A DNA stretch of 64,000 bases from Clostridia bacterium (GTDB taxonomy: Bacteria; Bacillota; Clostridia; Oscillospirales; CAG-272): contig JAGASS010000025.1 of assembly GCA_017621655.1 (NCBI GenBank), positions 11,157-75,156 of the forward strand, written 5' to 3'. Position 1 is the stretch's first letter. Each line of letters opens with the position of its first letter. Made by a program: the position numbers and the translations under genes. Shown in pieces: positions 3,135 to 44,335 of the stretch. Below the pieces are notes generated by a model. The model did not search any database. It was not told the origin of the DNA and saw nothing but the letters and a program-made list of their open reading frames with translations.

Positions 3135-3657
3135 GTTTTTCGCGGGCGAGCAATGCTCGCCCCTACAAAGGTATATTGAACGTGAATTCGTAGGGACAGG
3201 CAACCTCGGGAACCCCCAAAACTCGCGTTCGCTCGTTTCGGGGAACCCCTCACCTCGACTGTCCGCACGGGAACAATGTAACATCGTTTTTGCGCGGGGC
3301 GTCGAGGACGTCGCCCCCTACAAAGATGTGGCGAAAATTCGCTACGTTGTCTCGCCTTCCCCAGCGGGGGAAGGGGGACCGCAGACGCTGCGTCTGCGGT
3401 GGATGAGGTGTTCGGGAAAGATGTAACATTGTTTTTGTAACGGCGGGAGCAAGCCCCCGCCCTACGAAAACGTGACGAAACATCAGAACGTTGTCTTGCC
3501 TTCTCCAGTGGGAGGAAGGTAAGAGGTAAACAAGAGGCAGTGCCTCGGATGAGGTGTTCGGGAAAGATGTAACATTGTTTTTATGCGGGCGAGCAATGCT
3601 CGCCCCTACAAGAGAGTTTCAAGCGTTCCCGTAGGGGCGACCTGTGGTCGCCCGCCT
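3135..3657. repeat. REP/BIME-like composite repeat cluster R1 (about 2.5 tandem units of ~146 bp plus flanking hairpins)
   Basis: Six GC hairpins each abut CTAC or GTAG: GGGCGAGCAATGCTCGCCC-CTAC (twice), GTAG-GGACAGG...CTGTCC, GGGGCGTCGAGGACGTCGCCCC-CTAC, GGCGGGAGCAAGCCCCCGCC-CTAC and GTAG-GGGCGACCTGTGGTCGCCC. The conserved ATGTAACATYGTTTTT motif recurs at 3276, 3421 and 3567. Confidence 0.85.
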
Positions 3658-3712
3658 GTTCGTGATGCAATTTCGCGGGCGAGCGTGACGCAACAACATT
3701 ACCGCACACAAT

Positions 3713-3745
3713 CAAAAAAGCAAGAGCAATTTGCCCTTGCTTTTT
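3713..3745 (-). terminator. rho-independent terminator downstream of spo0A
   Basis: On the minus strand, AAGCAAGGGC-AAATT-GCTCTTGCTT hairpin followed by TTTTTTG. Confidence 0.7.
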
Positions 3746-3747
3746 CT

Positions 3748-4515
3748 TTACGACAGCTTGTTCGACAATCTGAGATTATCGGCTATCATGGCGATAAATT
3801 CGCTGTTCGTCGGCTTGCCGCGGTTGTTCTGAATGGTATAACCGAAATACGAATTGAGCGTTTCGACGTCACCTCTGTCCCACGCGACCTCGATCGCGTG
3901 ACGGATCGCGCGCTCGACGCGAGAGGAGGTCGTCGCGTACTTCTTCGCGACCGACGGATAAAGGATCTTCGTCACCGAATTTATAATATCGGAATCCTCG
4001 ACGGTCATCATAATGGCGGTGCGGAGGTACTGATAGCCCTTTATGTGCGCGGGAACGCCGATCTGATGGATAACTTTTGTGACCTGCGTCTCAATATCAA
4101 CGTCCTGACGGTGAACTGTGCCGGGCTTTCTGCGCGAGGAGGAAAGACGCTGAATGCGCTCGTGAAGCTGCTTGTAATCAAAGGGGCGAAGCATGCAGTA
4201 ATCAGCACCTGCCTCGGTCGCCTCGGCGAACATCGCACCGTTGTTGACGACCGAATAAACGATGAACGACGGCGCGGTGTCTGCTCCGAAATCGAGAAGC
4301 GACGCACCGCGAATGACCTGCGTGCAGTCGAGCTTTGAGAGCCACACGTCGGTCAGCACCACGTCGGGATGAAATTTGTCGATCTTGTAGAGCGCGTCCT
4401 CACCGTTTGACGCCTCCTCTATTCGCTTGTAGCCAAGCCCGATCAGATTTGAACGGCAGCTCCTTCTGAAATCACTGTTTTCGTCTGCAATAAGTATTTT
4501 GATGCTTTGTTCCAT
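3748..4515 (-). CDS. spo0A: sporulation master regulator Spo0A
   Basis: N-terminal receiver domain (ILIADEN...DVVLTDVWL). C-terminal Spo0A_C signature [16 protein letters not shown]...[15 protein letters not shown]...[22 protein letters not shown] lies upstream. Confidence 0.95.
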
Positions 4516-4699
4516 TATTTGTCACTCTCCGTAATTTTGATATTTGATTTACAAAATTATGATACCATAAATTACCAAATAATGCAATATATGGAAATTC
4601 AAAAATTTCGCCAAAGTTTGTATGGAAAAATTTACCAAATTGCACAAAGGGCTGTAGAATAAGGTCGAAACGGTGAGTTTGAGGGATGTGAAAACGCGA

Positions 4700-5014
4700 C
4701 CCTAGGGTGCGACGGCCACGTGAACCCCCAAAGCTCATTACATTCGCTTCGGGGAACCCCTACCTCGACGCCCCGTTATGAAAGAAAAGAAACATCGTTT
4801 ATTTTCGAGAGGGGAAACCCCTCCCCTACGAAAGAGACGCGCCACGTCGTCTTGCCTTCCCCAGCGGGGGAATGGTGCAAGAGGCGTTGCCTCGGTCGGT
4901 TGAGGTGTTCGGGAACAATGTAACATTGGTTTTATGCGGCGGGAGCAAGCCCCCACCCTACGAAAACGTGGCGAAGCTTCGCCGCGTTGTCTTACCTTCT
5001 CCCGCTGGAGAAGG
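4700..5014. repeat. REP/BIME-like composite repeat cluster R2
   Basis: Contains GAGGGGAAACCCCTCCCC-CTAC, GGCGGGAGCAAGCCCCCACC-CTAC, CCTTCCCCAGCGGGGGAA, GAGGCGTTGCCTC, TTGAGGTGTTCGGGAACAATGTAACAT and GTGGCGAAGCTTCGCCGCGTTGTCTTACCTTCTCCCGCTGGAGAAGG. Confidence 0.85.
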
Positions 5015-5036
5015 TATATCATCGTGTCAAAGTTAT

Positions 5037-6080
5037 TTAACCTTCTTGATCCTCAATCGTTTCGATAATTACCCCGGTGTAATAGTGAAGAAGAATCTCA
5101 TCATACGTCTTTCCGTTTTTTGCCATCTCGTTTGCACCGTACTGACTCATTCCGACGCCGTGACCGTAGCCGTGGACGGTGAAGCGCCAGCCGCCGTCGA
5201 TCTCCTCAAACTCAAAATTCGTCGATTTGAAGCCGAACTGACTTCGTAAGAGCTTCGCCTTGACTGCAAGTCCGCTTAGACATATATAATCGGCTCTTCC
5301 ACTGTCTGTCTCGGTTATGTAAATGCCTTTTTTGCTTCCCGAATTGACCTTTACCGCACTGTCGGAGGCGAAAAGAGATGCAATATCGCTGTCGGTAAGA
5401 GTTACCGTCGAAACACGGTCGCTTTCGGGGGTGCTGACGGACGTAAGATACGGCACGTTACCGCCCCAGATGTTCTTCGACGACTCGGTCATCCTGTAGG
5501 AGCTTGAATGGAAGACCGCGAGCGCCGGCTTGCCGTTCCAGGTTATTATCTGCCCTGCCGTTTGCTTGACCGCGTTTTTGACCTTCGTCATTATGCTTTC
5601 GGTCGTCGTTTTTCCGTAACGGGACACAAGCTCGTCTTGCGAGACGTAGGACTGACAGTGGGAATAATCGGTGCAGACGTCGGCGCCGTCCTTGTGTGAG
5701 CCGCTTCCGAGCTTGTTCAGACAGTAGGAACGAGCCGCCACCGCCTGCGCCTTGAGCGCCTCGGTGTGAAAGGTATATGGCATTTCGGCGGCAACGACGC
5801 AGACTATGTAATCCTCGAGCGACATTTCGACCGTCTTGTCCTCCTTGTGGAGATAAACAAGTAATCGGTCGGTCGGCTTTTCGGAATCGGGAGTTGTCGT
5901 TGACGGCTCGGTCTCGGGTGTCGGATCGGTTTCCGAGCCGATCGGCTCAGTTGTTTGAGGTGGAATAAAAGGTTCTTCTTCTGTCTCGGTAGCAGTCGCG
6001 ACGGACACGAGTGGAACGGTCACCGTAAATATGCAAATCACAATAAGCGCTATTGCGGTCAGCTTTCGTCTCAGATTCAT
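5037..6080 (-). CDS. spoIID: stage II sporulation protein D (SpoIID/LytB lytic transglycosylase domain)
   Basis: N-terminal signal/TM segment, a T/E/P-rich linker, then VVAAEMPYTFHTEALKAQAVAARSY and later motifs typical of SpoIID. Confidence 0.9.
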   Translation of the reverse strand: MNLRRKLTAIALIVICIFTVTVPLVSVATATETEEEPFIPPQTTEPIGSETDPTPETEPSTTTPDSEKPTDRLLVYLHKEDKTVEMSLEDYIVCVVAAEMPYTFHTEALKAQAVAARSYCLNKLGSGSHKDGADVCTDYSHCQSYVSQDELVSRYGKTTTESIMTKVKNAVKQTAGQIITWNGKPALAVFHSSSYRMTESSKNIWGGNVPYLTSVSTPESDRVSTVTLTDSDIASLFASDSAVKVNSGSKKGIYITETDSGRADYICLSGLAVKAKLLRSQFGFKSTNFEFEEIDGGWRFTVHGYGHGVGMSQYGANEMAKNGKTYDEILLHYYTGVIIETIEDQEG

Positions 6081-6102
6081 ATCTTATTTCTCCTTTTTTT
6101 CA

Positions 6103-6132
6103 ATACTTATGAAAAAATCCCGAAATATATGC
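6103..6132 (-). promoter_or_regulatory. possible sigma-E-type promoter for spoIID
   Basis: The minus strand reads GCATATATTTCGGGATTTTTTCATAAGTAT. This loosely fits the B. subtilis sigma-E pattern (ATA, about 16 nt, CATAcanT), about 25 nt upstream of the RBS. Confidence 0.3.
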
Positions 6133-6136
6133 GACC

Positions 6137-6165
6137 TTGATTTTCTTCACGCCCCGTGATATAAT
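6137..6165 (+). promoter_or_regulatory. sigma-A-type promoter for the 6189 ORF
   Basis: TTGATT, 17 nt spacer, TGaTATAAT (extended -10). Confidence 0.55.
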
Positions 6166-6188
6166 GAGAAAAAAACGGAGGTGAAACG

Positions 6189-6914
6189 ATGCTTGAAGCA
6201 GTCTTTTGGGAAGCCGAAAAATACTCCTTTCCGATAATAATAACCGACGGTAAGAGTGTCACGCGCAATTCGGAAGCAAAGAGAATAAGATCGCTTTCGC
6301 GCGTTTCGCCGATGTCGTGCCTGACGAAAAAGACGAAAGAAAACCTCCTTCTTATGAGCAAAAATTCGGCTGTAGCGGTCAAAACCAAAAGAGGGCCGTC
6401 GCTCGTTTACCGCATATATGACTACTTGATATTTATGTATCTGCCGATGCTCTATAATATCGGAAATATACCGAACGATATTTTTGACCTTAACGTGTCG
6501 GGAAACGGTCTGCCCGAAGCGTTATCAAATCTATCGCAAAAGCTTTTCCCGAAGGGAGAAATAACGGCTTCGTCATTTATTAGAGTCACGTCCCTTTCGG
6601 CAACGCTCGCCTTTTCGGAGGATACTGTCAAGGGTGATATAGACGGCGACGGTATGATAGACGCAAAAGAGGCGTTTTTCGCACTCGGACGCGCAATAGA
6701 AGACCTTGATATAAAGATGACAGAACTGCGTGAGCCGCCGATCACGGTAGCGTTTTCGGACGGTGAAACGTCGGTCTCCCTTTACGGCGAGAAGATATGG
6801 AGCGCAAGCTCGGTGGTTCTGACTGCGGTCTCACCCTATTCCTTTACCGAAAAGGAATATTCTGCCGCGTTTGCGGCTGCGACCGTGATTTCAATATTCA
6901 AATCGCGCAAATGA
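6189..6914 (+). CDS. hypothetical protein with one dockerin/EF-hand-like Ca-binding motif
   Basis: RBS GGAGGTG lies 5 nt before the ATG. The motif DIDGDGMIDAKEA is present. No family recognised. Confidence 0.45.
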   Translation: MLEAVFWEAEKYSFPIIITDGKSVTRNSEAKRIRSLSRVSPMSCLTKKTKENLLLMSKNSAVAVKTKRGPSLVYRIYDYLIFMYLPMLYNIGNIPNDIFDLNVSGNGLPEALSNLSQKLFPKGEITASSFIRVTSLSATLAFSEDTVKGDIDGDGMIDAKEAFFALGRAIEDLDIKMTELREPPITVAFSDGETSVSLYGEKIWSASSVVLTAVSPYSFTEKEYSAAFAAATVISIFKSRK

Positions 6915-6970
6915 GGTAGACAGTCTCACTTTTGCGTGATATACTAAAGAAAACAACGGAGGAAAAAGCT

Positions 6971-7825
6971 ATGCCATACCGATTCATGAGATTTCCCGAG
7001 GGGAAAACGAAGGCAGTGACCTTCAGCTACGACGACGGCGTCCGCACCGATATGCGACTTGCCGAAATTTGCGACAAATACGATCTTAAGGCGACCTTCA
7101 ATATCTGCAGTACGCTTATCGCGGAGAACGACGGCGAATGGCGCCTTACGAAAAATGAGTTAAGAGAGCTTGTTAGCCGCGGACACGAGATCGCGGTCCA
7201 CGGTCACGAGCATAAATCCCCCGCGGTTTCGACCGATATGGAGATAATAAAAGAGGTGCTTACCTGCCGTGAGAAGCTCGAAGAGGTACTCGGAACGGTG
7301 GTCACGGGAATGGCTTATCCCGACTGCGAGATCGCGCGTGCAGGCGCGCGTAGGTATGAGGAGATAAGAACGCTCTTAAGCTCTCTCGGAATCTCCTATT
7401 CGAGAACGCTCGGGGGTGATAATAACGGCTTCGCGCTTCCCGACGATTGGCTTGCTTGGATGCCGACTATCCATCACGACAATCCGAGCTCCATCGAATA
7501 CGCGCAGCAGTTCGTCGACATGAAGGTCGATGACCTCTACGTTTCAAGACATAATCCGCGCCTTTTCTACGTCTGGGGACATAGCTACGAGTTCGACAGT
7601 AATAACAATTGGGAACATTTCGAGGAGCTTTGTCAGATCCTTTCGGGTAAAGAGGACACATGGTACGCGACGAATATCGAAATTTACAGATATTCGAAGG
7701 CGTTTGATTCGCTTGTATTCAATACCGCAAATACCTGTGTGTATAACCCGACCGCGTTTGATATTTGGTTTTCATGTAAAGGCAAAACGCACTGCGTAAA
7801 AGCAGGACAAACGCTGAATTATTAA
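6971..7825 (+). CDS. polysaccharide deacetylase family protein (CE4-like)
   Basis: The track ORF begins at TTG 6932. I prefer ATG 6971, which is preceded by GGAGGAAAAAGCT. The sequence AVTFSYDDG...HGHEH is typical of the NodB/polysaccharide deacetylase fold. Confidence 0.85.
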   Translation: MPYRFMRFPEGKTKAVTFSYDDGVRTDMRLAEICDKYDLKATFNICSTLIAENDGEWRLTKNELRELVSRGHEIAVHGHEHKSPAVSTDMEIIKEVLTCREKLEEVLGTVVTGMAYPDCEIARAGARRYEEIRTLLSSLGISYSRTLGGDNNGFALPDDWLAWMPTIHHDNPSSIEYAQQFVDMKVDDLYVSRHNPRLFYVWGHSYEFDSNNNWEHFEELCQILSGKEDTWYATNIEIYRYSKAFDSLVFNTANTCVYNPTAFDIWFSCKGKTHCVKAGQTLNY

Positions 7826-7828
7826 AAG

Positions 7829-7858
7829 AAAAACAGACGGGAAACCGTCTGTTTTTTG
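7829..7858 (+). terminator. rho-independent terminator
   Basis: AACAGACGG-GAAA-CCGTCTGTT followed by TTTTTG. Confidence 0.75.
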
Positions 7859-7871
7859 TGTTTTTTAATTG

Positions 7872-8286
7872 ATGTAACATTGTTTTCGCACGGGAGGGGA
7901 GACCCCTCCCCTACAAAGGTATATTGAACGTGAATTTGTAGGGCGGGGGCTTGCTCCCGCCGTTCCAAAGAAAAGTAACATCGTTCCCACGCGGGCGAGC
8001 AATGCTCGCCCCTACAAGAAAATTCCAAACGCCCTTGTAGGGGCGACCATTGGTCGCCCGTTTTACGAGAGGGGAAACCCCTCCCCTACCGAGGGTAGAT
8101 CGAACGTCGATTTGTAGGGGGCGACGTCCTCGACGCCCCGTTTGGTCGTAAAGTAACACCGTTTTTGCGCGGCGGGAGCAAGCCCCCGCCCTACAAACAC
8201 GTGCCGAGGCATCGCCGCGTTGTTTGTCTTCCCCTCAGGGGAATGGTGCAAGGTGGCAGAGCAACGGACGGATAGGTGTTCGGATG
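7872..8286. repeat. REP/BIME-like composite repeat cluster R3
   Basis: Seven GTAG/CTAC-abutted hairpins, including two head-to-head pairs (hairpin-CTAC, 23-24 nt, GTAG-hairpin). The cluster ends with GTGCCGAGGCATCGCCGCGTTGT...CTTCCCCTCAGGGGAA...GGATAGGTGTTCGG. Confidence 0.85.
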
Positions 8287-8294
8287 ATGGCGCA

Positions 8295-9368: not shown

Positions 9369-9436
9369 AATGCACCTCAAAAATATCTTTATTTTCATTA
9401 TACACCGCTAAAGAAGAGTAAATTCACTTTCGGTAA

Positions 9437-9465
9437 TTGATTTTTCTTTTATACTGTGGTAAAAT
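9437..9465 (+). promoter_or_regulatory. sigma-A-type promoter for the cyclophilin gene
   Basis: TTGATT, 17 nt spacer, TGgTAAAAT. Confidence 0.55.
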
Positions 9466-9493
9466 AGCGTTACTACGTTATTAAGAGGTAATT

Positions 9494-10179: not shown

Positions 10180-10487
10180 CATTGTTCCCAAGCGGACAGT
10201 CGAGGTAGGGGTTCCCCGAAACGAGCGAACGCGAGTTTTGGGGGTTCCCGAGGTTGCCTGTCCCTACAAAGACGTGCCGAAGCATTGGGGCGTTATCTTA
10301 CCTTCTCCAGCGGGAGAAGGGTGTCTAAGAGGTAAACCTCAGACGGATGAGGTGTTCTGAATGGAAGCTAACTAATTTGAACTATAATCAGCTTTTTCAT
10401 CTGACACCTCATCCGCCTCGTTACACTCGGCACCTTCTCCCGCTGGAGAAGGTAAAATAATGCGGCGAAGCATTGCCGCGTTTCGCC
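10180..10487. repeat. REP/BIME-like composite repeat cluster R4
   Basis: A long GGACAG...CTGTCC-CTAC hairpin carries the nested GGGGTTCCCC insert. It is followed by an inverted pair GGATGAGGTGT ... ACACCTCATCC, each flanked by CCTTCTCC..GGAGAAGG hairpins. Confidence 0.85.
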
Positions 10488-13484: not shown

Positions 13485-13619
13485 GCGCCACGTTCATTAC
13501 CTTCTCCTGAGGGAGAAGGGGGACCGCAGGCGGAACGCCTGTGGTGGATGAGGAGTAAGTTCACTTATTCGACACCTCATCCGAGGTTTACCTCTTACCT
13601 TCACCCCGCTGGGGAAGGT
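13485..13619. repeat. palindromic composite repeat R5
   Basis: CCTTCTCCTGAGGGAGAAGG, CCGCAGGCGGAACGCCTGTGG, GGATGAGGAG, an 18-nt centre, ACACCTCATCC, GAGGTTTACCTC and CCTTCACCCCGCTGGGGAAGG. Confidence 0.8.
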
Positions 13620-15799: not shown

Positions 15800-16030
15800 G
15801 GACGCCTCATCCGCCACCTTCGGTGGTCTCCCTCTCAGTCGGCTTCGCCGCCAGCTCCCCCAAAGGGGGAGCCTCAAGAACGCCCCGATGCTTCGCCACG
15901 TTTTCGTAGGGCGGGGGCTTGCTCCCGCCGCATAAAAACAATGTTACATTGTTTTGTAACACCTCATCCGTCAACCTGCGGTTGACACCTTCTCCCACTG
16001 GAGAAGGTAAGACAACGTGGCGAAGCTTCC
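15800..16030. repeat. REP/BIME-like composite repeat cluster R6
   Basis: GCCTCATCC-CCACCTTCGGTGG, GCTCCCCCAAAGGGGGAGC, GTAG-GGCGGGGGCTTGCTCCCGCC, AAAAACAATGTTACAT, ACACCTCATCC-GTCAACCTGCGGTTGAC, CCTTCTCCCACTGGAGAAGG and GTGGCGAAGCTTC. Confidence 0.85.
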
Positions 16031-17878: not shown

Positions 17879-18080
17879 TTGTAGGGGGCGACAACCTCGG
17901 GAACCCCAAAAACTCGCTTCACTCGTTTTAGGGAACCCCTAACCTAGACGCCCCGTTTCAAACGTAATGTATCTTGTTTGATAGAGACATTTCAAACTTT
18001 CAATAGAGAAGTACGTTCAAGAAAAATATAAACGTTTATTTCGGGGCGCCGAGGACGTCGCCCCCTACAATGACGTGGTA
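17879..18080. repeat. REP pair R7, heads outward, bracketing ~85 bp of AT-rich DNA
   Basis: GTAG-GGGGCGAC...(nested ~55 nt insert)...GACGCCCC at 17881-17954, and GGGGCGCCGAGGACGTCGCCCC-CTAC at about 18042-18069. Confidence 0.8.
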
Positions 18081-22059: not shown

Positions 22060-22262
22060 CGTTGTTTGCCTTCTCCTGAGGGAGAAGGGGGACCACGAAG
22101 TGGTGGATGAGGAGTAATCTCACGATATAGACACAAAAGGAATCGTTAAAGCTCATTACATTTGCTTTTATATACTCTTTGACACCTCATCCGAGGCACT
22201 GCCTCTTGTTTACCTCTTACCTTCATCTCGCTGGAGAAGGCAAAGTAAAATGCCGAAGCTTT
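22060..22262. repeat. palindromic composite repeat R9, located between uxuA and the SDR gene
   Basis: CCTTCTCCTGAGGGAGAAGG, CCACGAAGTGGTGG, GGATGAGGAG, a ~65-nt centre, ACACCTCATCC, GAGGCACTGCCTC and CCTTCATCTCGCTGGAGAAGG. Confidence 0.8.
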
Positions 22263-24703: not shown

Positions 24704-24780
24704 GGCGGAGTAGCTCAGTTGGCTAGAGCAACCGGTTCATACCCGGTAGGTCATGGGTTCAAGTCCAATCTCCGCTACCA
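24704..24780 (+). tRNA. tRNA-Met (anticodon CAT; could alternatively be a lysidine-modified Ile2)
   Basis: Folded by hand: acceptor GGCGGAG/CTCCGCT, D arm GCTC..GAGC, anticodon stem ACCGG/CCGGT with loop TTCATAC, a TTCAAGT T-loop and an encoded CCA. There is one G-A mismatch in the T stem. Confidence 0.85.
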
Positions 24781-24855
24781 GGCCCGTTGGTCAAGCGGCT
24801 AAGACACCGCCCTTTCACGGCGGTAACACGAGTTCGATTCTCGTACGGGTCACCA
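24781..24855 (+). tRNA. tRNA-Glu (anticodon TTC)
   Basis: Acceptor GGCCCGT/ACGGGTC, anticodon stem CCGCC/GGCGG with loop CTTTCAC, a TTCGATT T-loop and an encoded CCA. It starts on the base immediately after the CCA of tRNA-Met. Confidence 0.9.
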
Positions 24856-24858
24856 AAA

Positions 24859-24896
24859 TGAAAAGAGGGATGCAAAGCATCCCTCTTTTCATTTTG
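24859..24896 (+). terminator. rho-independent terminator after the tRNA pair
   Basis: GAAAAGAGGGATGC-AAA-GCATCCCTCTTTTC followed by ATTTTG. Confidence 0.8.
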
Positions 24897-24949
24897 ACGC
24901 CTCGTCGAAACGACGAGGCGCGAAAGCGTAACGAGTTCGCATTTGAGCC

Positions 24950-25132
24950 GAAAGCACGACGTCGTGTTCGGGAACAATGTAACATCGTTTTTGCGCGGGG
25001 CGTCGAGGACGTCGCCCCCTACAAAGATGTGGCGAAAATTCGCCACGTTGTCTCGCCTTCCCCTCAGGGGGGAAGGTAAGAGGTAAACAAGAGGCAGTGC
25101 CTCGGATGAGGTGTTCGGGAACAATGTAACAT
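24950..25132. repeat. REP/BIME-like composite repeat R10 (one full unit)
   Basis: Near-identical to parts of two different R1 units. See the finding at 24950-25132. Confidence 0.9.
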
Positions 25133-25157
25133 CCTTTCCAAACGGACCGTCTCAATT

Positions 25158-27453: not shown

Positions 27454-27488
27454 GTTGTACGGCGGGAGCAAGCCCCCGCCCTACGGTT
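27454..27488. repeat. single REP unit R11
   Basis: GGCGGGAGCAAGCCCCCGCC-CTAC. Confidence 0.8.
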
Positions 27489-29728: not shown

Positions 29729-29890
29729 GTTTTTATACGAGAGGCATATTGAACGTAAATATGTAGGGACAGGCGTCCTCGACTGTCCGTACGGAAATAA
29801 TGCAACATTGTTTTTATACGGGCGAACGCAGTTCGCCCCTACGGAAACGCTTGATGTTTTCACGGTAGGGGCGAAGCATTGAGGCGTTCT
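29729..29890. repeat. REP/BIME-like composite repeat cluster R12
   Basis: GGCATATTGAACGTAAATAT linker, GTAG-GGACAGGCGTCCTCGACTGTCC, ATGCAACATTGTTTTT, GGGCGAACGCAGTTCGCCC-CTAC and a degenerate GTAG-GGGCGAAGC. Confidence 0.8.
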
Positions 29891-34065: not shown

Positions 34066-34208
34066 TTGTAGGGGGCGACGTCCTCGACGCCCCGTTACAT
34101 AGGCAATGATTCTTTCCAACAAAAACTCGAAGATTCGTGATAGAAATATGCGTTTTTATAGAACCCAAAGGTGGCATTGCGGGGCGTCGAGGACGTCGCC
34201 CCCTACTG
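34066..34208. repeat. REP pair R13, heads outward, same stem in both arms
   Basis: GTAG-GGGGCGACGTCCTCGACGCCCC, about 85 bp of AT-rich DNA, then GGGGCGTCGAGGACGTCGCCCC-CTAC. Confidence 0.85.
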
Positions 34209-37402: not shown

Positions 37403-37785
37403 CCGTAGGGGCGCCCCTACGAGGACGTTCAAAATTCTCTTGTAGGGGCGAGCATTGCTCGCCCGTTCGGTCGTAAAGTAACATCGTTTTTTGCGGGGCG
37501 TCGAGGACGTCGCCCCCTACAATAACGTGGCGAAGCTTCTAGACGCTGTCTTGCCTTCCCCAGCGGGGGAAGGTGTCGGCGAAGCCGACGGATGAGGTGT
37601 TCGGGTGTGATGTAACATTGTTTTTGTAACGGCGGGAGCGCGTGGGGTTCCCCGATGCGAATGAAATGAGCTTTGGGGGTTCCGAGCATACCCCCGCCCT
37701 ACGGTGCGTCGAGGACGTCGCACCCTACAAAGACGCGGCGAAGCTTCGACATGCTATTTTGCCCTCTCCAAGGGGAAGGCAAGAC
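37403..37785. repeat. REP/BIME-like composite repeat cluster R14
   Basis: GTAGGGGCGCCCCTAC, GTAG-GGGCGAGCATTGCTCGCCC, GGGGCGTCGAGGACGTCGCCCC-CTAC, the scaffold with GTCGGCGAAGCCGAC, GGCGGG..(nested insert)..CCCGCC-CTAC and GGTGCGTCGAGGACGTCGCACC-CTAC. Confidence 0.85.
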
Positions 37786-37845
37786 AACGCCCCTGCTCAC
37801 CCGCCAATTATTCATTATTCATTCTTTCATTATTCATCATTCATT

Positions 37846-37878
37846 AAAAAAGCACCCGCCAAAGCGGATGCTCTTTTC
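37846..37878 (-). terminator. terminator downstream of the 297-aa gene
   Basis: On the minus strand, GAGCATCCGC-TTTG-GCGGGTGCT followed by TTTTTTA. Confidence 0.6.
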
Positions 37879-37887
37879 TTGACTATT

Positions 37888-38781
37888 TTATGGCTGATAT
37901 GCCGTAGACCAGATACGCGCCTTATAGAAGCGTCCGCCCGTTGTCGAAACGGTCTTAAGGGTGCGTGTCTTTCCGTCGATATAATACACTAAGGTGGTGT
38001 TCCAGCCGCCGGTACCGTTCCAATTATCGGGAAGTCCGTCGTGCTCGGTATAGAAGAAGTCTCCGTTCTCAAAATAGCCGACCGATCTGATCCACTTGGC
38101 TTTAGCTCCTTCAACGTCCGCATACGCTTCGGTAAAGGTCTTCTTTACCTTATCGAAGCAATAAACGTGATTCGCGGTCGTGATGAGGAGAACGTCGTCG
38201 TTACCCGTACACGGCTGAAGGTCGTGCAGACCTCCGTCGGGAGTCGTGACGCTCAATTCTTCGTTCTTAACGAGCGTTACCGTACCGTCAGCGTTAAGCG
38301 TCACTTCATAAGCGTAGAGCATATTACTGCCCGCGCACCAGAGGACGTCGTTTTTCGGGTCCCAAAGAACGCCGTGTGCATCGGTATGATCAATCGTCAG
38401 CTTCGGCTCGTCGGGGTTGTCGGAGTTAATATCGAAAAATGCGACCGCATTGCCCGATGAACCTGCAACCGCAACTATACCGTTTTGAAGAAGCTCAATG
38501 CTGTGAGCGTTACTTGGAGCGTTGCCCGTTCTCCAGATGACCTCCTTGGTATCGTAAGACACCATTTCGGCGCACGGTCCGCCAACCATAAGCACTACGT
38601 CGCCGTAGGGGGCTATATTGCGGACCTTGAATCCGCTTATCGTATTGCAGAACTCAGTCGTACAGCTCCAGATGGGGTCGTTCATTTCGCCTTTTGCTAT
38701 GTCGTAAAGCGCGACCTTTTTCTCGGGACGCTGAATTCCAAGCCCGATCAGCCGTTTTTCTTTTCCGTTATTTCCGCACAT
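37888..38781 (-). CDS. uncharacterised beta-propeller-like protein, paralog of the C-terminal domain of the 1077-aa protein
   Basis: Aligns by eye along its whole length with residues ~790-1077 of the 39281-42514 product (shared VYDIA.G.MN.PIW, APYGDVVL, EMVSYDTKE.IWRT, DAHGVLWDP, GG.HDLQP, GRFYK.R.W...YQP). No signal peptide. It may belong to a DUF family, but this was not verified. Confidence 0.7.
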   Translation of the reverse strand: MCGNNGKEKRLIGLGIQRPEKKVALYDIAKGEMNDPIWSCTTEFCNTISGFKVRNIAPYGDVVLMVGGPCAEMVSYDTKEVIWRTGNAPSNAHSIELLQNGIVAVAGSSGNAVAFFDINSDNPDEPKLTIDHTDAHGVLWDPKNDVLWCAGSNMLYAYEVTLNADGTVTLVKNEELSVTTPDGGLHDLQPCTGNDDVLLITTANHVYCFDKVKKTFTEAYADVEGAKAKWIRSVGYFENGDFFYTEHDGLPDNWNGTGGWNTTLVYYIDGKTRTLKTVSTTGGRFYKARIWSTAYQP

Positions 38782-38825
38782 AAATTTCTCCGTTAAAATG
38801 TTGATTGGATAAAAACCGTACCATT

Positions 38826-38855
38826 ATTATACTCTCACGGCGCAAAAAATGTCAA
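38826..38855 (-). promoter_or_regulatory. sigma-A-type promoter for the 297-aa gene
   Basis: The minus strand reads TTGACA, 18 nt spacer, TATAAT. Confidence 0.55.
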
Positions 38856-39091
38856 GCGTTTTATGCCGCGTTTAACTAAAATCTCCAAGCTTGGGAAAAC
38901 GGGCTTGGTCTTACCGAATTATAAAATGAAGGAGGTCGGCTTTAACGTCGTAGGAATCGCAGAATTTGCATTGAAGAGAATGAAGCTGAAAGAGGGCGAA
39001 TGCGAGAATGTCCTTTCGGGTTAAAGCTTCAAGGAAAAGACCGTTTTCACCCCCTGCGAGCTTCAATTTTTGAGAAAGATCCGATTAAACG

Positions 39092-39126
39092 ACAAAAAGC
39101 TCCACCCGAAGGTGGAGCTTTTCTCT
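39092..39126 (-). terminator. terminator after the small peptide gene
   Basis: On the minus strand, AAGCTCCACC-TTCG-GGTGGAGCTT followed by TTTGTCG. Confidence 0.75.
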
Positions 39127-39134
39127 TTTAATTA

Positions 39135-39266
39135 TTACTCGCCGAAGGGATTGAAGCCCGGGAATGCGAAATTACCGAGAGCAAAGTCAAGTCCGGAGGT
39201 AGTAATAACGTCTTCGTTTTCAAATACTACTACGTTCATAGTAGGCATTTCAAATTTCTTTTCCAT
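39135..39266 (-). CDS. 43-aa small peptide, candidate secreted or modified peptide
   Basis: Hidden inside the 97-aa track ORF 39135..39428. ATG 39266 has GGAG 8 nt upstream, and that RBS sits right after the stop of the 1077-aa gene. Product: MEKKFEMPTMNVVVFENEDVITTSGLDFALGNFAFPGFNPFGE. Confidence 0.55.
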   Translation of the reverse strand: MEKKFEMPTMNVVVFENEDVITTSGLDFALGNFAFPGFNPFGE

Positions 39267-39280
39267 TATTATAACTCCTT

Positions 39281-42200
39281 TCACGGCTGATAATCTGTGT
39301 ACCATACGCGGCACTTGTAGAAGCGTCCCTGATCCGAAGGAACAGTGGTAAGCTCGCCGTCGGCGGGAACGTAGGTGAGATACGTAGTATTCCAACCGCC
39401 GCCGCTGTTGTCGTTTACACCGTCCCAATACATATAGATCATGTCGCCGTTTTTGAAGAAGCCGACTCCCTTAACGTGACCTTCTTCGATGATAGGCGTA
39501 CAGGTACCGTTGGTCTTATCGACAATGTAAACGTGAGCCGCAGCCGAAACGATGAGCTTATTCACGTCTCCCGTAACGGGCTGAAGATCGTGTGCTCCGC
39601 CTTCGGGAAGCACTACGCTGAGTTCTTCATCCTTGGTAACGGTAACCGTACCGTCGTCGTTAAGAACCACCTTATATGCGGAAAGCAGATTATCACCTGC
39701 TGCCCAGAGAACCTCATAAGTAGGATCCCAGAGAACTCCGTGTGCGTCGTTGAAGTACATTTCATATATGCACTCGGAGGGATTCTCGCCGTGGAGATTG
39801 AAGAAGGTAAGCGTACATCCGGGCGCGGTAGCGTGACTGGGGGAGTTGGTGCCGCCCGTTACGATGATGCCGTTAGAAAGGATATCGATAGAGTGAGTGT
39901 TACCCGACGAATCCGTCGTTCTCCAGATAAGCTCCTTGGTGTCGTAAGATACCATTTCAGCGATCTTTCCTGCCGCGGTAAGAACTACGTCGCCGTAAGG
40001 AGCGTAGTTACGGAACTTGAAGCCGCTGATCGTGGTAGCGGTGGTCTTATACGTCCAAATAGGAGTATTCATATTGCCCGTCGCAATATCGTAAACCTCG
40101 ATCTGGTTCTTACTCTGGTTAGCCATACCGACGAGAAGCTGCTTATCCTCTCTTGCCTCTTCGTTGAGATCGTAGAGAGACTTAAGAAGAGTAAGCTGTT
40201 TGTCGGAGAGCTGACCTACGTTACCTTCATCAAGAGCTATCTTGATGTAGGAGTAGAGAGATACGTTGTAGGTCTCTTCCTTATCGCCGCTTACTACCTT
40301 GATAGCGTCGGCAACGTGATACTTGCCCGCTACGGGAGTAACGTCGAAGTAGTAGATGTTAGTATTTGCTACGTTATTAAGCGTAAGCTCAGTGCCGTTA
40401 AGGTAAACCTTAGCGTTGTTCTCGATGATAAAATGATGACGGAGGAACATATTTCCGTTTGCGTCAAAGTCGATATTGAAGAGCTTGTATTCAGCACCTT
40501 CAATAACGTTGCCCGTAACGCCGTAATCGTCGAGATCGCCTGCCTGAGGTCCGACTACGGTAACGATCTTATCCTCGTAATCGGCGTTATCCTTGTTCAG
40601 ATAGTTATCAAGCGCATTACCATTATTGGTTTCAGCGTTTTCAAGAGCAGTATTATCGTATCCGCACTTGTCGCAGACGTTGTCGTCACCGTAGGTACAA
40701 GCTTCTTCGGCTATATCCGTGTCGTCGCAGCAGATACGGTTAAATCTGTGAGTTCCCTTGCCCGTATTGACGTAAACGCCTTCCGAAGCATGGTTGTTCT
40801 TGTCTACATCACCGAAGGTCATCTTACAGTTAGTACAGGTCTCGGGAGTGTTACAGGTTGCAGTCGTACGGTTGGTATGAGTACACTCATAATCGCAGAT
40901 AGCGCATACGCCGTCGTTCTTCGACCAGTCGTGTACTGCATAGCTGAGCTTTTCGTCACAACCGTGGTTACATGCGTACCAGTGACCGACCTCATCGGCA
41001 GTCCACTCGGTAGCGGGAGCGTGAGCGTTCTCGTCAAGAGGGATCACGACGTCGGTGTTGAACAGTACGGAGGTTGCATCTGCATTAGCGTAAAGCACGC
41101 CGCAGGAGCACTTCCAATGCTCCAGGTTGCCGGGTTTTCCGTTAACGCAGTCAGGAGCAGTATAAGGAACCTTGGTAAGAGTTTCAGCGGAGCAGGGGTG
41201 ATCACTCTTGCAATTTACTTCGAGGTATTCTATTCTGGCACCGCAATAATCCGCGTCGTAGGAGTTTGCGTTCGCATTGACTCTGGTCATAAGGTAAATG
41301 GATTCGCCTGCCTCGAGGTGCACCGAGGTTTTAAGTGCAAAATCGAATGTAAGACCGTGTCTCGTTGTCGTAGCGGAGGGATTGTAGGTAGTACTTTCAT
41401 TAAGTACTTCCATTTTGCTGTTCAAGAGCAGGAAATCGTTGGAGAATATTTTTCCGGTGTTAGCATTATAATCCCATTCCTTATAGAACTTGGCATCAAA
41501 GAGATACTCTCCTGCGATAGGCGCAGTAAACTCGATTACCGATGAGTAATCATAACCTGCGTTCATAGGAAGCATTCTGACTTTTTCGCCCGCGAGCCAG
41601 AAGAACTTACTCGTAGAAGCAGTAATGCCGGTTACAGTTGCCGCACCGTTTGCATAATTAAGATTATCGAGGAACTCTCCGGTTACATGGTTGTATCCTC
41701 TAAGAGTAAATGCGTTGTTGGTTCCGCATACAGCGCCCGTAAGGTCGGACGAGAACTCGTACGTTACGAAATCTTCCTCGTCAAGCTTCGCGATAACGAG
41801 CTCGTCTATACCTGCGCCACAAAGCTTATTATCCGCTTGGGCAAGAGTCATAGTTCCGTACGCATTAGCGGTAAAGTAAAGGACGTCGCCCTTTTTAAGC
41901 GCAACAAGGCCCTTGAGGGTTCCCTCAAAATCCTCGGTCAGCTCGGGAGCAGTAGCGTTGATCTCGACAGTGCCCTTCTTTACCTTGAATATAACCTGCT
42001 TTGTTCCGGATCCGTCCGCGTTATATCCGAGAGAGTGCACGACCTCCTTGTACGAATAAATACCGTCCTCAGGAGCAGTAAAGGCAACAGCCAATTCCGT
42101 AGCTTTGGTAGGCTTGCTGATGTCCTGGTTCGCATCGGAAAAATTGAAGGGGTTCACTCGAAGGTCAGAGCCTTCGCTCTTGTCATAGTAAAAGTGTTTG

Positions 42201-42514
42201 TAAGAAGCCCATGCGTTCTGTTTACTCCACTTTTCAGCGCTTGCACCGGCGACAATATTCGCTGCGCCCCAAGCGATCTGGTTCCATGCAGGCGCCCAAG
42301 CGGAGACGTTTCTAAAAGCGCCACCAGAATTGCCGAAATCACCGATTTGGAAAGGACCGTCGGTACCGTTTCCGGTGTAGAACGCACCGGGATCCATGAT
42401 CCACTCGGTTTCATCGGCTTCCACTGCGTGTACGTCGATAATCGGACGGGAGATTATGAACGTCGACGCAACCATGAAACACGCGAGTAGAAATGAAAGT
42501 ATGCGTTTTTTCAT
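39281..42514 (-). CDS. large secreted multidomain protein (signal peptide, two beta-rich regions, Cys/His-rich block, C-terminal propeller-like domain)
   Basis: 1077-aa ORF with signal peptide MKKRILSFLLACFMVASTFIISRPIIDVHA. It contains a Cys-rich block of about 180 aa and a C-terminal domain paralogous to the 37888-38781 product. Confidence 0.85.
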   Translation of the reverse strand: MKKRILSFLLACFMVASTFIISRPIIDVHAVEADETEWIMDPGAFYTGNGTDGPFQIGDFGNSGGAFRNVSAWAPAWNQIAWGAANIVAGASAEKWSKQNAWASYKHFYYDKSEGSDLRVNPFNFSDANQDISKPTKATELAVAFTAPEDGIYSYKEVVHSLGYNADGSGTKQVIFKVKKGTVEINATAPELTEDFEGTLKGLVALKKGDVLYFTANAYGTMTLAQADNKLCGAGIDELVIAKLDEEDFVTYEFSSDLTGAVCGTNNAFTLRGYNHVTGEFLDNLNYANGAATVTGITASTSKFFWLAGEKVRMLPMNAGYDYSSVIEFTAPIAGEYLFDAKFYKEWDYNANTGKIFSNDFLLLNSKMEVLNESTTYNPSATTTRHGLTFDFALKTSVHLEAGESIYLMTRVNANANSYDADYCGARIEYLEVNCKSDHPCSAETLTKVPYTAPDCVNGKPGNLEHWKCSCGVLYANADATSVLFNTDVVIPLDENAHAPATEWTADEVGHWYACNHGCDEKLSYAVHDWSKNDGVCAICDYECTHTNRTTATCNTPETCTNCKMTFGDVDKNNHASEGVYVNTGKGTHRFNRICCDDTDIAEEACTYGDDNVCDKCGYDNTALENAETNNGNALDNYLNKDNADYEDKIVTVVGPQAGDLDDYGVTGNVIEGAEYKLFNIDFDANGNMFLRHHFIIENNAKVYLNGTELTLNNVANTNIYYFDVTPVAGKYHVADAIKVVSGDKEETYNVSLYSYIKIALDEGNVGQLSDKQLTLLKSLYDLNEEAREDKQLLVGMANQSKNQIEVYDIATGNMNTPIWTYKTTATTISGFKFRNYAPYGDVVLTAAGKIAEMVSYDTKELIWRTTDSSGNTHSIDILSNGIIVTGGTNSPSHATAPGCTLTFFNLHGENPSECIYEMYFNDAHGVLWDPTYEVLWAAGDNLLSAYKVVLNDDGTVTVTKDEELSVVLPEGGAHDLQPVTGDVNKLIVSAAAHVYIVDKTNGTCTPIIEEGHVKGVGFFKNGDMIYMYWDGVNDNSGGGWNTTYLTYVPADGELTTVPSDQGRFYKCRVWYTDYQP

Positions 42515-42643
42515 AAAATTTTCCTCCTTTAAGGTTTTTTAATTTTTCATTAAAAATTCTATAATATTCCGTTTTTTGCTCAAAGAATCCCCTTATTCTT
42601 CGATTGAAAAACAGAGTTATAGCGGAGAGTATACCTATTTTAG

Positions 42644-42673
42644 ATTATACATTATTTAGCGCGAAGTTGTCAA
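42644..42673 (-). promoter_or_regulatory. sigma-A-type promoter for the 1077-aa gene
   Basis: The minus strand reads TTGACA, 18 nt spacer, TATAAT, about 130 nt upstream of the start. Confidence 0.55.
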
Positions 42674-42791
42674 CCGTTTTGCCAAGCTTCGTTTTAGAAT
42701 TTTCAGCTTATTATTTGGCAAAAATGACTATTTTGTCCCGTCAATTTGATAATTTCTCCCAAAATTTTCAGAACAAATGTTTGCTTTTGTA

Positions 42792-42821
42792 TTGACAAAG
42801 AACATCTGTTCGTGTTATAAT
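42792..42821 (+). promoter_or_regulatory. sigma-A-type promoter for dinB
   Basis: TTGACA, 18 nt spacer, TATAAT. Confidence 0.65.
42799..42813 (+). promoter_or_regulatory. LexA (Cheo/SOS) box overlapping the dinB promoter spacer
   Basis: AGAACATCTGTTCGT matches the Gram-positive consensus GAAC-N4-GTTC. Confidence 0.7.
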
Positions 42822-42847
42822 CAGCTTGACGAGGGGGGGGTGATAGC

Positions 42848-44092
42848 TTGATAAGAACTATCCTGCACTGTGACATGAACAATTTTTTCGCGTCCGTCGA
42901 GTGTCGTAAGGACCCTCGGCTTTTTTCGCTGCCTCTCGCCGTCTGCGGAAGTATTGAGGAGCGCCACGGCATCGTTCTTGCCAAAAATTACGTTGCGAAA
43001 AAATACGGCATCGTAACAGGCGAGCCGGTCGTTCGTGCGAAGCAGAAATGCCCCGATCTCATAATCGCCGAGCCGCATTACGACGAGTATATGTATTTTT
43101 CGCGCTTAGCGAAGGAGATATATCTTTCATATACCGACCTCGTTGAGCCGTTCGGCGCCGACGAATGTTGGCTCGACGTGACGGGAAGCCGCGCCCTTTT
43201 CGGCGACGGAGAGACCATTGCAAACACCCTGCGCGAGCGCATAAAAAATGAGCTTGGGCTTACCATTTCGGTCGGAGTTTCCTTCAACAAAATGTTCGCA
43301 AAGCTCGGCTCGGATATGAAAAAGCCCGACGCTGTGACCGTCATTCCCTATGAATCGTTCAGGGAAAAGATATGGCATCTGCCCGCCTCCGACCTTATGG
43401 GCGTCGGTCCTGCGACGTGCGCAACGCTTGCGCGGTTCGGCATTCACACTATTGGTCAGATTGCAAACGCCTATCCGCCGATGCTGAAAAGCGCGCTCGG
43501 AAAAAACGGGCTTTCGCTTATCGAAACCGCGAATGGCAGGGACGTCTCGCCCGTCGTTTCCGAGGAAAACGCCGAGCCGATAAAGAGCATGAGTCACGGC
43601 ACGACGACCGCCCGCGATCTCACGACTCGTGAGGAGATAAAGGCCGTTATGCTCGCCCTTTGCGAGGAGCTTGGGCATCGGCTTCTTGCGCTGAAGAGAA
43701 AGGCGTGCTCGGTCAGCGTTGCGCTCCGTGACTGCAACCTGCAGACGTGTCAGTATCAGTGTCACCTCGATATGCCGACAGACAGCTATTCGGTGATCGC
43801 CAAGCGCGCCTTTGCGCTCACGCTCGAAAAGCATCATTTTTCCGCGCCGCTTCGCTCTGTCACTGTCGGCGTGAACCACTTGATCCCGTCATCCTCTCCC
43901 TGCCAGATCGACCTCTTTACCGATCCATCCGATACCGTTCGGCGCGAAACGCTCGATTCAGTTATGGATAGGATCAATGTCCGTTTCGGCAGGGACAAGA
44001 TCAGATATGGGCTTCTTTATTCATCTTCCCTTTCCGACGTCAGCGAGGGCTTCGGATTCGGAAAGATAAACAATATGATGGCGGCGACGTGA
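42848..44092 (+). CDS. dinB: DNA polymerase IV (Y-family)
   Basis: ILHCDMNNFFASVE and SIDEAWLDV-like (GADECWLDVTG) motifs. TTG start preceded by GAGGGGGGGG. Confidence 0.9.
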   Translation: MIRTILHCDMNNFFASVECRKDPRLFSLPLAVCGSIEERHGIVLAKNYVAKKYGIVTGEPVVRAKQKCPDLIIAEPHYDEYMYFSRLAKEIYLSYTDLVEPFGADECWLDVTGSRALFGDGETIANTLRERIKNELGLTISVGVSFNKMFAKLGSDMKKPDAVTVIPYESFREKIWHLPASDLMGVGPATCATLARFGIHTIGQIANAYPPMLKSALGKNGLSLIETANGRDVSPVVSEENAEPIKSMSHGTTTARDLTTREEIKAVMLALCEELGHRLLALKRKACSVSVALRDCNLQTCQYQCHLDMPTDSYSVIAKRAFALTLEKHHFSAPLRSVTVGVNHLIPSSSPCQIDLFTDPSDTVRRETLDSVMDRINVRFGRDKIRYGLLYSSSLSDVSEGFGFGKINNMMAAT

Positions 44093-44109
44093 CGGGAAGG
44101 CGAGGGGGC

Positions 44110-44335
44110 GCGGCAAAGCTTCGGAATGTTGCTATGGCTCCCTCCGGGAGGGAGCTGTCACCGAAGGTGACTGAAGGAGCACGCGCGGGAACGATGTTAC
44201 TTTTCTTTGGAACGGCGGGAGCAAGCCCCCGCCCTACACGGCGGCGTTGCCGCCTACACCTCATCCGTCAACCTGCGGTTGACACCTTCCCCCGCTGGGG
44301 AAGGTAGACAACGTGGCAAAGCTTTTCGTCGCCTT
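44110..44335. repeat. REP/BIME-like composite repeat cluster R15
   Basis: CTCCCTCCGGGAGGGAG, the shared 31-nt GTCACCGAAGGTGAC block, GGCGGGAGCAAGCCCCCGCC-CTAC, ACACCTCATCC-GTCAACCTGCGGTTGAC, CCTTCCCCCGCTGGGGAAGG and GTGGCAAAGCTTT. Confidence 0.85.

Follow-up and report, generated by a model that had tools for sequence, protein, structure and literature searches.

GTAG-tagged hairpin mosaics in a spore-forming Clostridia genome and RAYT-like nucleases as their likely cognate enzymes

Introduction

Research on repetitive extragenic palindromic (REP) elements and REP-associated tyrosine transposases (RAYTs) has, to our knowledge, been carried out almost wholly on Proteobacteria, and both the spread of REPs and the matching of each nuclease to its hairpin are still-open questions in the field. 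A 64-kb stretch of the Clostridia bacterium contig JAGASS010000025.1 (hereafter the window, with positions counted from its first letter) carries 31 clear and 3 short or degenerate GTAG-tagged hairpins between 3144 and 44257. These hairpins are likely GTAG-superfamily REPs set in mosaics that resemble bacterial interspersed mosaic elements (BIMEs), with their cognate enzyme in a RAYT-like family of Y1 HUH nucleases common in Oscillospirales-type Clostridia. A rich multi-class REP/BIME system is thereby placed among gut and rumen Clostridia that are abundant and for the most part uncultured.

What the window's elements have in common with the GTAG REPs and BIMEs known from Enterobacteria, Pseudomonas and Stenotrophomonas is a GC-rich palindrome of 19-26 nt preceded by an unpaired 5' GTAG, the coexistence of several classes whose stem changes are complementary, and an extragenic location (PMC3733652, PMC2817692). 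In both, dimers are formed both ways around with fixed spacers, and bigger clusters repeat the dimers together with flanking DNA (PMC3733652). The mosaic layout as a whole matches the descriptions of enterobacterial BIMEs and clustered GTAG repeats (PMC3733652). The conserved internal mismatch of class I, as defined below, recalls the REPs of E. coli, and the perfect palindromes of class III recall group 3 REPs. In contrast, the host of the present elements is a spore-forming Oscillospirales-type Clostridium, while Firmicutes are absent from the text of the 2013 survey (PMC3733652). Long, conserved loops, GCGTCCTCGA for class I and GGCTTGCT for class II, mark the window's hairpins, the mosaics include a 110-nt multi-hairpin module and, in some loops, an insert of ~45 nt, and lineage-specific linkers are combined with order-wide hairpins.

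The closest known system on the enzyme side is TnpAREP of E. coli (YafM, 4ER8; PMC3479197, PMC8266576), with which the Clostridial RAYT-like proteins share the HUH motif, the Tyr and Asn, the GTAG contacts, a length of ~165-175 aa and a physical tie between gene and cognate REPs. They differ from it in being only ~20-27% identical and below the NCBIfam RAYT cut-off, in that the cognate REP pair does not flank the gene but falls within it, at two surface loops that bracket the HUH strand, and in that some related genomes hold two or more genes with differing REP classes. The REPINs of Bertels and Rainey are likewise inverted REP pairs with a fixed spacing, here of 21-24 nt, foldable into one long hairpin, and show the same vertical persistence with a RAYT-type gene. 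Unlike REPINs, the pairs of the window are often heterologous, as for the class III element at 3144-3166 with the class I element at 3190-3264, and they are set in longer arrays; their replication as a doublet is putative. IS200/IS605 insertion sequences (ISs) use the same protein fold and the same single-strand hairpin recognition with a 5' tetranucleotide, but the window elements lack both an IS structure and separate left and right ends, and their tag and protein motifs are of the RAYT type.

Earlier surveys assigned to Clostridia only 'Group 1' RAYTs, equal to the long, REP-less subclass 2.1. The system had been thought poorly described in Clostridia, and no paper on REPs or RAYTs in Clostridia, Firmicutes, Bacillota or Ruminococcaceae was found in the literature searched, in which subscription journals were mostly uncovered. 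Relative to that literature, three points are new, with an earlier description still possible: a multi-class GTAG-REP/BIME system in spore-forming Clostridia, the combination of Oscillospirales-wide REPs with lineage-specific linkers, and a RAYT-like family with an internal, in-frame cognate REP pair.

Hairpin classes, folding and covariation

A first-pass annotation of the window had described about 30 GTAG-abutted hairpins with at least seven unrelated stems, filling about 15 intergenic regions. All the stem sequences that it quoted were found at or near their positions when the window was read, and the curated scan agreed with its copy number, its intergenic placement and its coverage of 3.5-4 kb (summed cluster spans of 3,512 nt in the first ~45 kb), with the intergenic regions numbering 14. 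Among all short GC-rich hairpins of the window, GTAG forms the 4 nt 5' of the stem in 22 of 128 strand-sides and the second-commonest tetranucleotide in 4, and 20 shuffles yielded no GTAG-hairpin, so that the adjacency is strongly enriched. Like the GTAG-superfamily REPs, the elements are dispersed, extragenic and multi-copy, with 31-34 copies in 45 kb, a figure for this stretch since a whole-genome count is not available. The stems, in contrast, are not seven unrelated ones: the hairpins fall into three structural classes, within which the loops are conserved and the stems covary.

Class I has a body of 22 nt, GG-NNNN-GCGTCCTCGA-NNNN-CC, with a conserved internal mismatch; class II has a body of 20 nt, GG-NNNN-GGCTTGCT-NNNN-CC; and class III comprises perfect palindromes of 19 nt with the arms GGGCGAGC, GGGCGACC, GGGCGAAC or GGGAGGGG. 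With bodies of 19-26 nt and stems of 6-8 bp, the elements are GC-rich short palindromes of the size typical of the superfamily. Folded as DNA, they reach -7.4 to -10.2 kcal/mol (z = -2.5 to -5.6) with the GTAG single-stranded. For class I, 53 distinct sequences were assembled from a pattern scan in which the loop and the tag were fixed and the variable stem positions left free, together with other fetched loci, and the GTAG was invariant across all of them. Stem cells were paired in 98.1% of cases versus 82.2% in shuffles, all four Watson-Crick pair types occurred at three stem positions, and 65 double changes were observed against 17.8 +/- 3.7, a degree of covariation attained by none of 500 shuffles. 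Complementary stem changes of this kind define sub-families, and covarying stems beside an invariant tag indicate selection on structure and tag, not on stem sequence. G-T pairs also occur in some stems.

The class I copies without a loop insert lie at 3296-3321 (minus strand, GTAGGGGGCGACGTCCTCGACGCCCC), 8114-8139 (plus, GGGGCG stem), 18043-18068 (minus), 24997-25022 (minus, downstream of tRNA-Met/tRNA-Glu), 29763-29788 (plus, GTAGGGACAGGCGTCCTCGACTGTCC), 34068-34093 (plus), 34181-34206 (minus), 37495-37520 (minus) and 37703-37728 (minus, GTAGGGTGCGACGTCCTCGACGCACC). The last of these is the copy with compensatory stem changes (GGTGCG/CGCACC) that had been noticed near 37706. Copies with a loop insert occupy 3190-3264 (plus, stem GGACAG/CTGTCC), 10194-10267 (minus, GGACAG stem) and 17881-17954 (plus, GGGGCG stem), and a degenerate one at 4702-4774 (plus), whose tag is mutated to CTAG, has an intact counterpart in L011 (L numbers denote fetched loci). 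Class II is found at 3442-3465 (minus, GTAGGGCGGGGGCTTGCTCCCGCC), 4938-4961 (minus, a variant GTAGGGTGGGGGCTTGCTCCCGCC with a G-T pair), 7938-7961 (plus), 8171-8194 (minus), 15906-15929 (plus), 27461-27484 (minus, a single copy), 37631-37702 (minus, with a loop insert) and 44214-44237 (minus). Class III comprises GTAGGGGCGAGCATTGCTCGCCC at 3144-3166 (minus, GTAG unpaired, z -5.6), the GCGAGC stems at 3587-3609 (minus), 7993-8015 (minus) and 37442-37464 (plus), a GCGACC stem at 3631-3653 (plus), GTAGGGGCGACCATTGGTCGCCC at 8037-8059 (plus), a GCGAAC stem at 29820-29842 (minus), and the GAGGGG stems at 7892-7914 (minus) and, with one mismatch each, 4807-4829 and 8067-8089 (both minus). Two smaller elements complete the set, namely a mini-palindrome with the tag at both sides (GTAGGGGCGCCCCTAC, 37405-37420, without assignable strand) and a short GTAG-tagged hairpin (GTAGGCGGCAACGCCGCC, 44240-44257, minus).

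Mosaic architecture

The orientation of the REPs alternates, and both orientations occur at the same site. Seven pairs have their GTAG ends inward across spacers of 21-24 nt, for example CTAC-AAAGGTATATTGAACGTGAATTY-GTAG, and pairs with the GTAG ends outward stand 30-31 nt apart around a conserved linker containing AAGTAACATYGTTTTT. Two further class I pairs with outward GTAG ends are more widely spaced, 17881-17954 with 18043-18068 by an AT-rich spacer of 88 nt and 34068-34093 with 34181-34206 by a spacer of 87 nt. Alternating REPs joined by few conserved linker motifs are the hallmark of BIMEs, and here too the linker sequences recur between loci.

A long linker module of ~110 nt consists of the palindrome GTGGCGAAGCTTCGCCAC, a CCTTCYCC-N4-GGRGAAGG hairpin, a variable, interchangeable hairpin, and then GGATGAGGTG. 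There are 13 full copies in the window, with cores on the plus strand at 3355-3410, 3499-3556, 4855-4907, 10301-10354, 13500-13555, 22069-22114, 25056-25113 and 37554-37599, and on the minus strand at 10405-10452, 13573-13618, 15960-16007, 22183-22240 and 44257-44304; the copy at 15960-16007 is held in common with the relative L221. Together with an adjoining REP, as at 3355-3410, the module makes up a composite unit of ~145 nt, which stands in tandem at spacings of 144-147 nt. Composite stretches at distant loci are up to 94% identical, as for the 108 nt of 3268-3375 versus 24969-25076, the latter overlapping the core at 25056-25113. The ~145-nt composite, rather than the bare hairpin, appears to be the expanding unit.

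The linkers and the long module are confined to the window's lineage, where the pattern scan detected them in six metagenome-assembled genomes (MAGs) and they recur in the syntenic relatives, whereas the hairpins are spread across the order. An exact 36-mer of the long module had no match in the species-representative genomes, and the window's species is therefore not among them.

Several observations on the module stand apart from its arrangement. A conserved multi-hairpin structure was considered and rejected, as the CCTTCYCC/GGRGAAGG hairpin alone persists in the consensus. Inverted pairs of the module without a nearby REP lie at 13.5 kb (13500-13555 with 13573-13618), 22.1 kb (22069-22114 with 22183-22240) and 10.3 kb (10301-10354 with 10405-10452), and its purine-rich arms look like Shine-Dalgarno sequences. 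In a permissive scan of 3100-5100, every Rfam match fell below threshold, the best being PrrB_RsmZ (PrrB/RsmZ) over one composite unit at 3476-3613 (25 bits against a gathering cut-off of 44, E 0.003); these matches were treated as chance, the best one probably arising from the repeated GGA-rich hairpins.

Five REPs of classes I and II carry an insert of ~45 nt in the loop, at 3208-3249, 10208-10249 and 17899-17939 and within 4702-4774 and 37631-37702. In the insert, two direct GGGAACCCC repeats flank a variable core, and in class I CCTCG stands at both boundaries, resembling a target duplication; its own fold is not significant. Possibly, the insert is itself a second small element, with REP loops as its target. 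A further short sequence is the 17-bp perfect palindrome AACAATGTTACATTGTT in the linker beside a REP at 15937-15953, near-copies of which, with 1-3 mismatches, lie at 3272-3288, 3417-3433, 3563-3579, 4914-4930, 24973-24989 and 25120-25136. To judge from their sequence, its 8-bp half-sites look operator-like, as for a dimeric DNA-binding protein.

RAYT-like nucleases in related genomes

With the E. coli TnpAREP sequence, checked against PDB 4ER8, as the query on the fetched loci, RAYT-like open reading frames (ORFs) of ~160-175 aa were found in several Clostridial MAGs. They match Pfam Y1_Tnp and, far better, NCBIfam REP_Tyr_transpos (NF047646), with E values of 1e-16 to 3e-18. The family has 6,514 relatives, and among the 120 listed most are unnamed and a few are called 'hypothetical protein' or 'transposase'.

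The catalytic residues H84, H86, Y152 and N156 (numbered in P0001) are invariant and align with the H-x-H, Y115 and N119 of the E. coli enzyme, giving the Y-x3-N(P) motif. In 4ER8, the GTAG is contacted by W94, Q95, E100, H101 and R104 of TnpAREP (PMC6006769). The Clostridial equivalents W131, Q132, H138 and R141 are invariant in alignment A1, and D137, in place of E100, is present in at least 90% of sequences. An AlphaFold model of the RAYT-like protein (mean predicted local distance difference test score, pLDDT, 81.8) retrieved 4er8_A as the first Foldseek hit (E 2.9e-7, template-modelling scores 0.61/0.63, root-mean-square deviation 3.2), with IS200/IS605 transposases at ranks 2-30. As modelled, the protein is a Y1 HUH fold closest to TnpAREP.

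The window itself contains no such gene, as had been claimed of transposases in general. No Y1 transposase was detected when its ORFs of at least 80 aa were searched by phmmer with E. coli TnpAREP and IS608 TnpA, and no RAYT-like gene by tblastn with one Clostridial RAYT-like protein. A pattern in which a class II REP precedes the WQ motif had no match in metagenomes, being too strict for the class II proteins.

REPs inside the nuclease genes

For a survey of the position of REPs, the best 80 RAYT-like loci in species-representative genomes (L141-L220) were taken, among which the window's lineage is absent. Two inverted GTAG REPs lie within the gene in 53 of these 80, one REP in 14 and none in 13. 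The two members of the pair stand at ~+110 on the gene strand and ~+300 on the opposite strand from the start, belong to one class per gene in all 53 and are read in frame; the genes at 3001-3498 of L153 and 2352-2846 of L188 are examples. Outside the genes there is usually no REP within 400 bp, and classical flanking REPs were seen only in distant homologues such as L211 (Microcoleus), L217 and L203 (Oscillospiraceae MAGs) and L196 (an Anaerolineae MAG). REPs that overlap the ends of RAYT genes have been reported earlier (PMC3733652).

The protein loops made by these REPs track whichever class the gene carries. A class I REP encodes V-G-x-G-V-L-D-x-P (for example VGTGVLDCP) and in reverse G-x-S-G/R-T-P-x-P-T, a class II REP encodes VGRGLAPA and AGASPRPT, and a class III REP encodes, for instance, VGANCVRP or VGAIHELP. 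E. coli TnpAREP lacks both segments in the alignment, and the model puts them in an inter-strand loop and in a disordered loop that follows the HUH strand, so that they bracket that strand. Amino-acid pairs across each segment covary as palindromic codons demand (D/V, T/C-G-R, S/R and G/A). Codon choice preserves the tag at synonymous positions: GTA is used for Val in 53 of 55 genes (background 30%), GGG for Gly in 55 of 55 (background 29%), and CCT for the Pro ahead of the reverse tag in 47 of 51 (background 22%). It is thus the nucleotide sequence that is under selection. In P0061, one of the RAYT-like proteins, a 26-residue insertion was noted within the first REP-encoded loop.

REPs identical to those of the window were found within RAYT-like genes for all three classes. 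For class I these are GTAGGGGGCGACGTCCTCGACGCCCC (3296-3321) in L153 and GTAGGGACAGGCGTCCTCGACTGTCC (29763-29788) in L122/L149, L141 and L151; for class II, GTAGGGCGGGGGCTTGCTCCCGCC (3442-3465) in L188 and L199; and for class III, the GCGAGC type as REP2 of L180 (as at 3144-3166) and the GCGACC type as REP2 of L190 (as at 8037-8059). Near matches are the GCGAAC type of 29820-29842, one base off the internal REPs of L176 and L201, and a GAGGGG stem with another loop in L198. Given these window-identical REPs inside RAYT-like genes, such genes are very probably present in the window's genome, or formerly were, several of them and one for each class. When intergenic REPs were compared with the REP in or beside a RAYT-like gene of the same MAG, the two matched exactly in both MAGs that gave a clear outcome, the other MAGs being uninformative as they hold several coexisting classes. 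With the REP segments masked, the REP class agreed between nearest protein neighbours in 45 of 53 cases, versus ~26 by chance and a maximum of 38 in 2,000 shuffles. Two genes of different class within one MAG stand in tandem (L027/L141, L145 and L182) or on separate contigs (L163/L164).

The internal pair may, at somewhat below an even chance, be functional, perhaps as a master copy that links a nuclease variant to its hairpin or as a site through which the enzyme or the hairpin RNA would regulate expression of the gene itself. If so, the intergenic mosaics of the window would be the dispersed progeny of several such genes. The converse idea that intergenic REP pairs are decayed fragments of RAYT genes was dropped, the central RAYT segment being untraceable outside intact genes. 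A nuclease gene physically tagged with its own substrate makes the co-evolution of enzyme and repeat directly testable.

Distribution and turnover among relatives

The class I pattern matched at least 120 stretches in species-representative genomes, mostly of Oscillospiraceae, Acutalibacteraceae and Ruminococcaceae, so that the elements are not limited to the window but occur in other contigs and related genomes. Ruminococcus flavefaciens and Gemmiger formicilis are among the cultured hosts of the hairpins and are usable for experiments. A few matches also appeared in MAGs labelled as non-Clostridia, namely L031, L114 (Bacteroides MAG), L043, L125 (Opitutales/Opitutaceae) and L115 (Collinsella), which could be mis-binned contigs, chance or a truly wider distribution.

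Turnover was followed in the syntenic region of seven related species, whose SpoIID proteins are 76-92% identical to that of the window. The gene-proximal Rho-independent terminators are kept in the relatives, as at 7828-7857 and after spo0A, and so is the promoter-proximal DNA, while the DNA between conserved terminator and promoter varies, including its REP content. The gap between the AI-2E transporter and polysaccharide deacetylase genes measures 469 nt with seven REPs in the window, and 277 nt with one REP, 296 nt with two and 122 nt with none in three relatives. The spo0A/cdaA gap of the window, 768 nt, has six REPs, and those of relatives have 0-2 (1, 2 and 0). Relative to its closest relative, L221, the window has exactly one additional unit of 146 nt at 15.8-16.0 kb, composed of a class II REP (15906-15929) and the long module, with AACATT on either side. 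The elements are thus not stably orthologous, and the variation in REP content beside constant terminators and promoters speaks for turnover, not conserved RNA function.

The first 22 kb of the window recur at 99.7-100% identity in at least six contigs, each from a different metagenome assembly, which shows that the repeats are not an assembly artefact. Presence/absence polymorphism at strain level was not seen, every contig with a window protein being of the same strain at that identity. Several of the recurring contigs terminate within REP clusters; with contig ends falling within them, REP mosaics evidently break short-read assemblies of these genomes.

Origin of the mosaics

The earlier suggestion of a REP-like family readable by RAYT-type Y1 enzymes gained support from the layout, from the spread of the hairpins in Oscillospirales-type genomes, from the RAYT-like HUH family present there and from the window-identical REPs in genes of that family. 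None of the outcomes named beforehand as refuting it was observed, since the tag is enriched and the elements are neither limited to the window nor stably orthologous. By analogy with TnpAREP of E. coli, Stenotrophomonas and Marinomonas (PMC8266576, PMC3479197), the nuclease would bind the folded REP on single-stranded DNA, read and require the GTAG, cut nearby and rejoin the strands, and such cutting and rejoining would offer a copying route by which REP segments seed new copies. Recombination or slippage between shared linkers would then let the arrays of ~145-nt units grow and shrink. The mosaics occupy the non-essential, neutral gap that separates the terminator of a gene from the promoter of the following one, and they behave as tolerated passengers, whatever secondary uses the host makes of them. 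We infer that a RAYT-like gene is the agent of REP spread in this genome.

Several points weigh against this account. No transposition event, cleavage site or target site has been demonstrated, and the sole clean pair of filled and empty sites, the 146-nt unit with AACATT, fits tandem duplication as well as insertion. The RAYT-like proteins miss the NF047646 cut-off (61-66 bits versus 80), still with this as their best family by far. Nor does a RAYT model account for the long linker module or the loop inserts. Neither the window nor the searched pieces from its closest relatives (L001-L014 and L135-L140, not L221-L229) yielded a RAYT-like gene, so that the link between REP and enzyme is one of sequence identity with other genera and not of co-occurrence. 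The lineage-specific linkers, moreover, are absent from all fetched RAYT loci.

The lack of the gene from the 64-kb window and ~100 kb of close relatives would also be expected if the mosaics were relics, once spread by a RAYT or inherited, the gene since lost, and now changing only by slippage, unequal recombination and gene conversion between linkers. Loss of the REPtron is documented in many E. coli strains (PMC3733652), many copies here are diverged (60-85% over composite units), and the AACATT on both sides of the additional 146-nt unit is as expected from tandem duplication. This reading is nevertheless judged unlikely: composite units as far apart as 3268-3375 and 24969-25076 reach 94% identity, identical REPs of 20-26 nt recur in many separate intergenic regions, beyond the reach of local slippage, the sets of REPs at the same sites differ between species that are 8-24% apart in SpoIID protein, and the share of the genome examined for the gene is small.

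That RAYT-type nucleases spread the REPs is likewise preferred to the proposal that the hairpins are host RNA elements, such as terminators, attenuators or mRNA stabilisers, independent of any nuclease. Many of them do lie downstream of genes, their covarying stems and G-T pairs would suit an RNA, and E. coli REPs influence mRNA stability and termination (PMC3733652). However, the sequence next to the hairpins is CTAC instead of a T run, and they were not called as terminators; the true, conserved terminators sit between gene and mosaic (7828-7857 and the spo0A terminator); orthologous sites in relatives are empty or hold other classes; both orientations occur at one site; Rfam at gathering thresholds reported two tRNAs alone in the window and no family for the hairpins; and the same sequences lie in frame within a nuclease gene, whose synonymous sites preserve the tag. 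A host RNA role as the whole explanation is accordingly very improbable.

The least probable reading is that of palindrome-associated miniature elements left or moved by an ordinary IS200/IS605 transposase, for although TnpA likewise uses a hairpin with a 5' guide tetranucleotide (PMC8266576) and IS608-like TnpA ORFs exist in these bacteria (two copies in L095, E 3e-22), a single tag, the RAYT signature GTAG, stands on all hairpins, only RAYT-like genes (with the Y-x3-N(P) and the WQ...DH..R GTAG-contact motif) were found to carry or adjoin these exact hairpins, no IS ends or tnpB-type genes lie beside the window clusters, and no IS200/IS605 gene adjoins hairpins in the window or the RAYT loci. 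The two L095 ORFs form an adjacent pair at 265-777 and 971-1483 (E ~3e-22 to the H. pylori enzyme) on a contig of an Acutalibacteraceae MAG that also carries a class I REP.

Other features of the window

The window has 48% G+C and encodes housekeeping and sporulation proteins such as Spo0A, SpoIID, CdaA, DNA polymerase III delta' and RbfA; its two tRNAs are tRNA-Met and tRNA-Glu. REPs are absent past 44.3 kb, since 45.3-64 kb is a single tightly packed polysaccharide-biosynthesis locus. This REP-free locus (45339-64000) consists of ~19 kb of minus-strand genes for synthesis of surface polysaccharide or teichoic-acid-type polymers, including two UDP-GlcNAc 2-epimerases, glycosyltransferases, a Wzy-like polymerase, a flippase, LicD and a CDP-glycerol glycerophosphotransferase. 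Two cytidylyltransferase paralogues in it, 45723-46118 and 61000-61431, are 75% identical over 300 nt.

Mechanically called ORFs of 108-251 aa run across the REP mosaics at 3073-3426, 24753-25079 and 37642-37992 (all on the plus strand), and another at 3583-4338 (plus) starts in a REP cluster and extends into spo0A on the opposite strand; REP mosaics are a likely source of false gene calls in automated annotation. The DUF6528 proteins encoded side by side at 37888-38781 (297 aa) and 39281-42514 (1077 aa) have in common a stretch of 117 nt with 78% identity.

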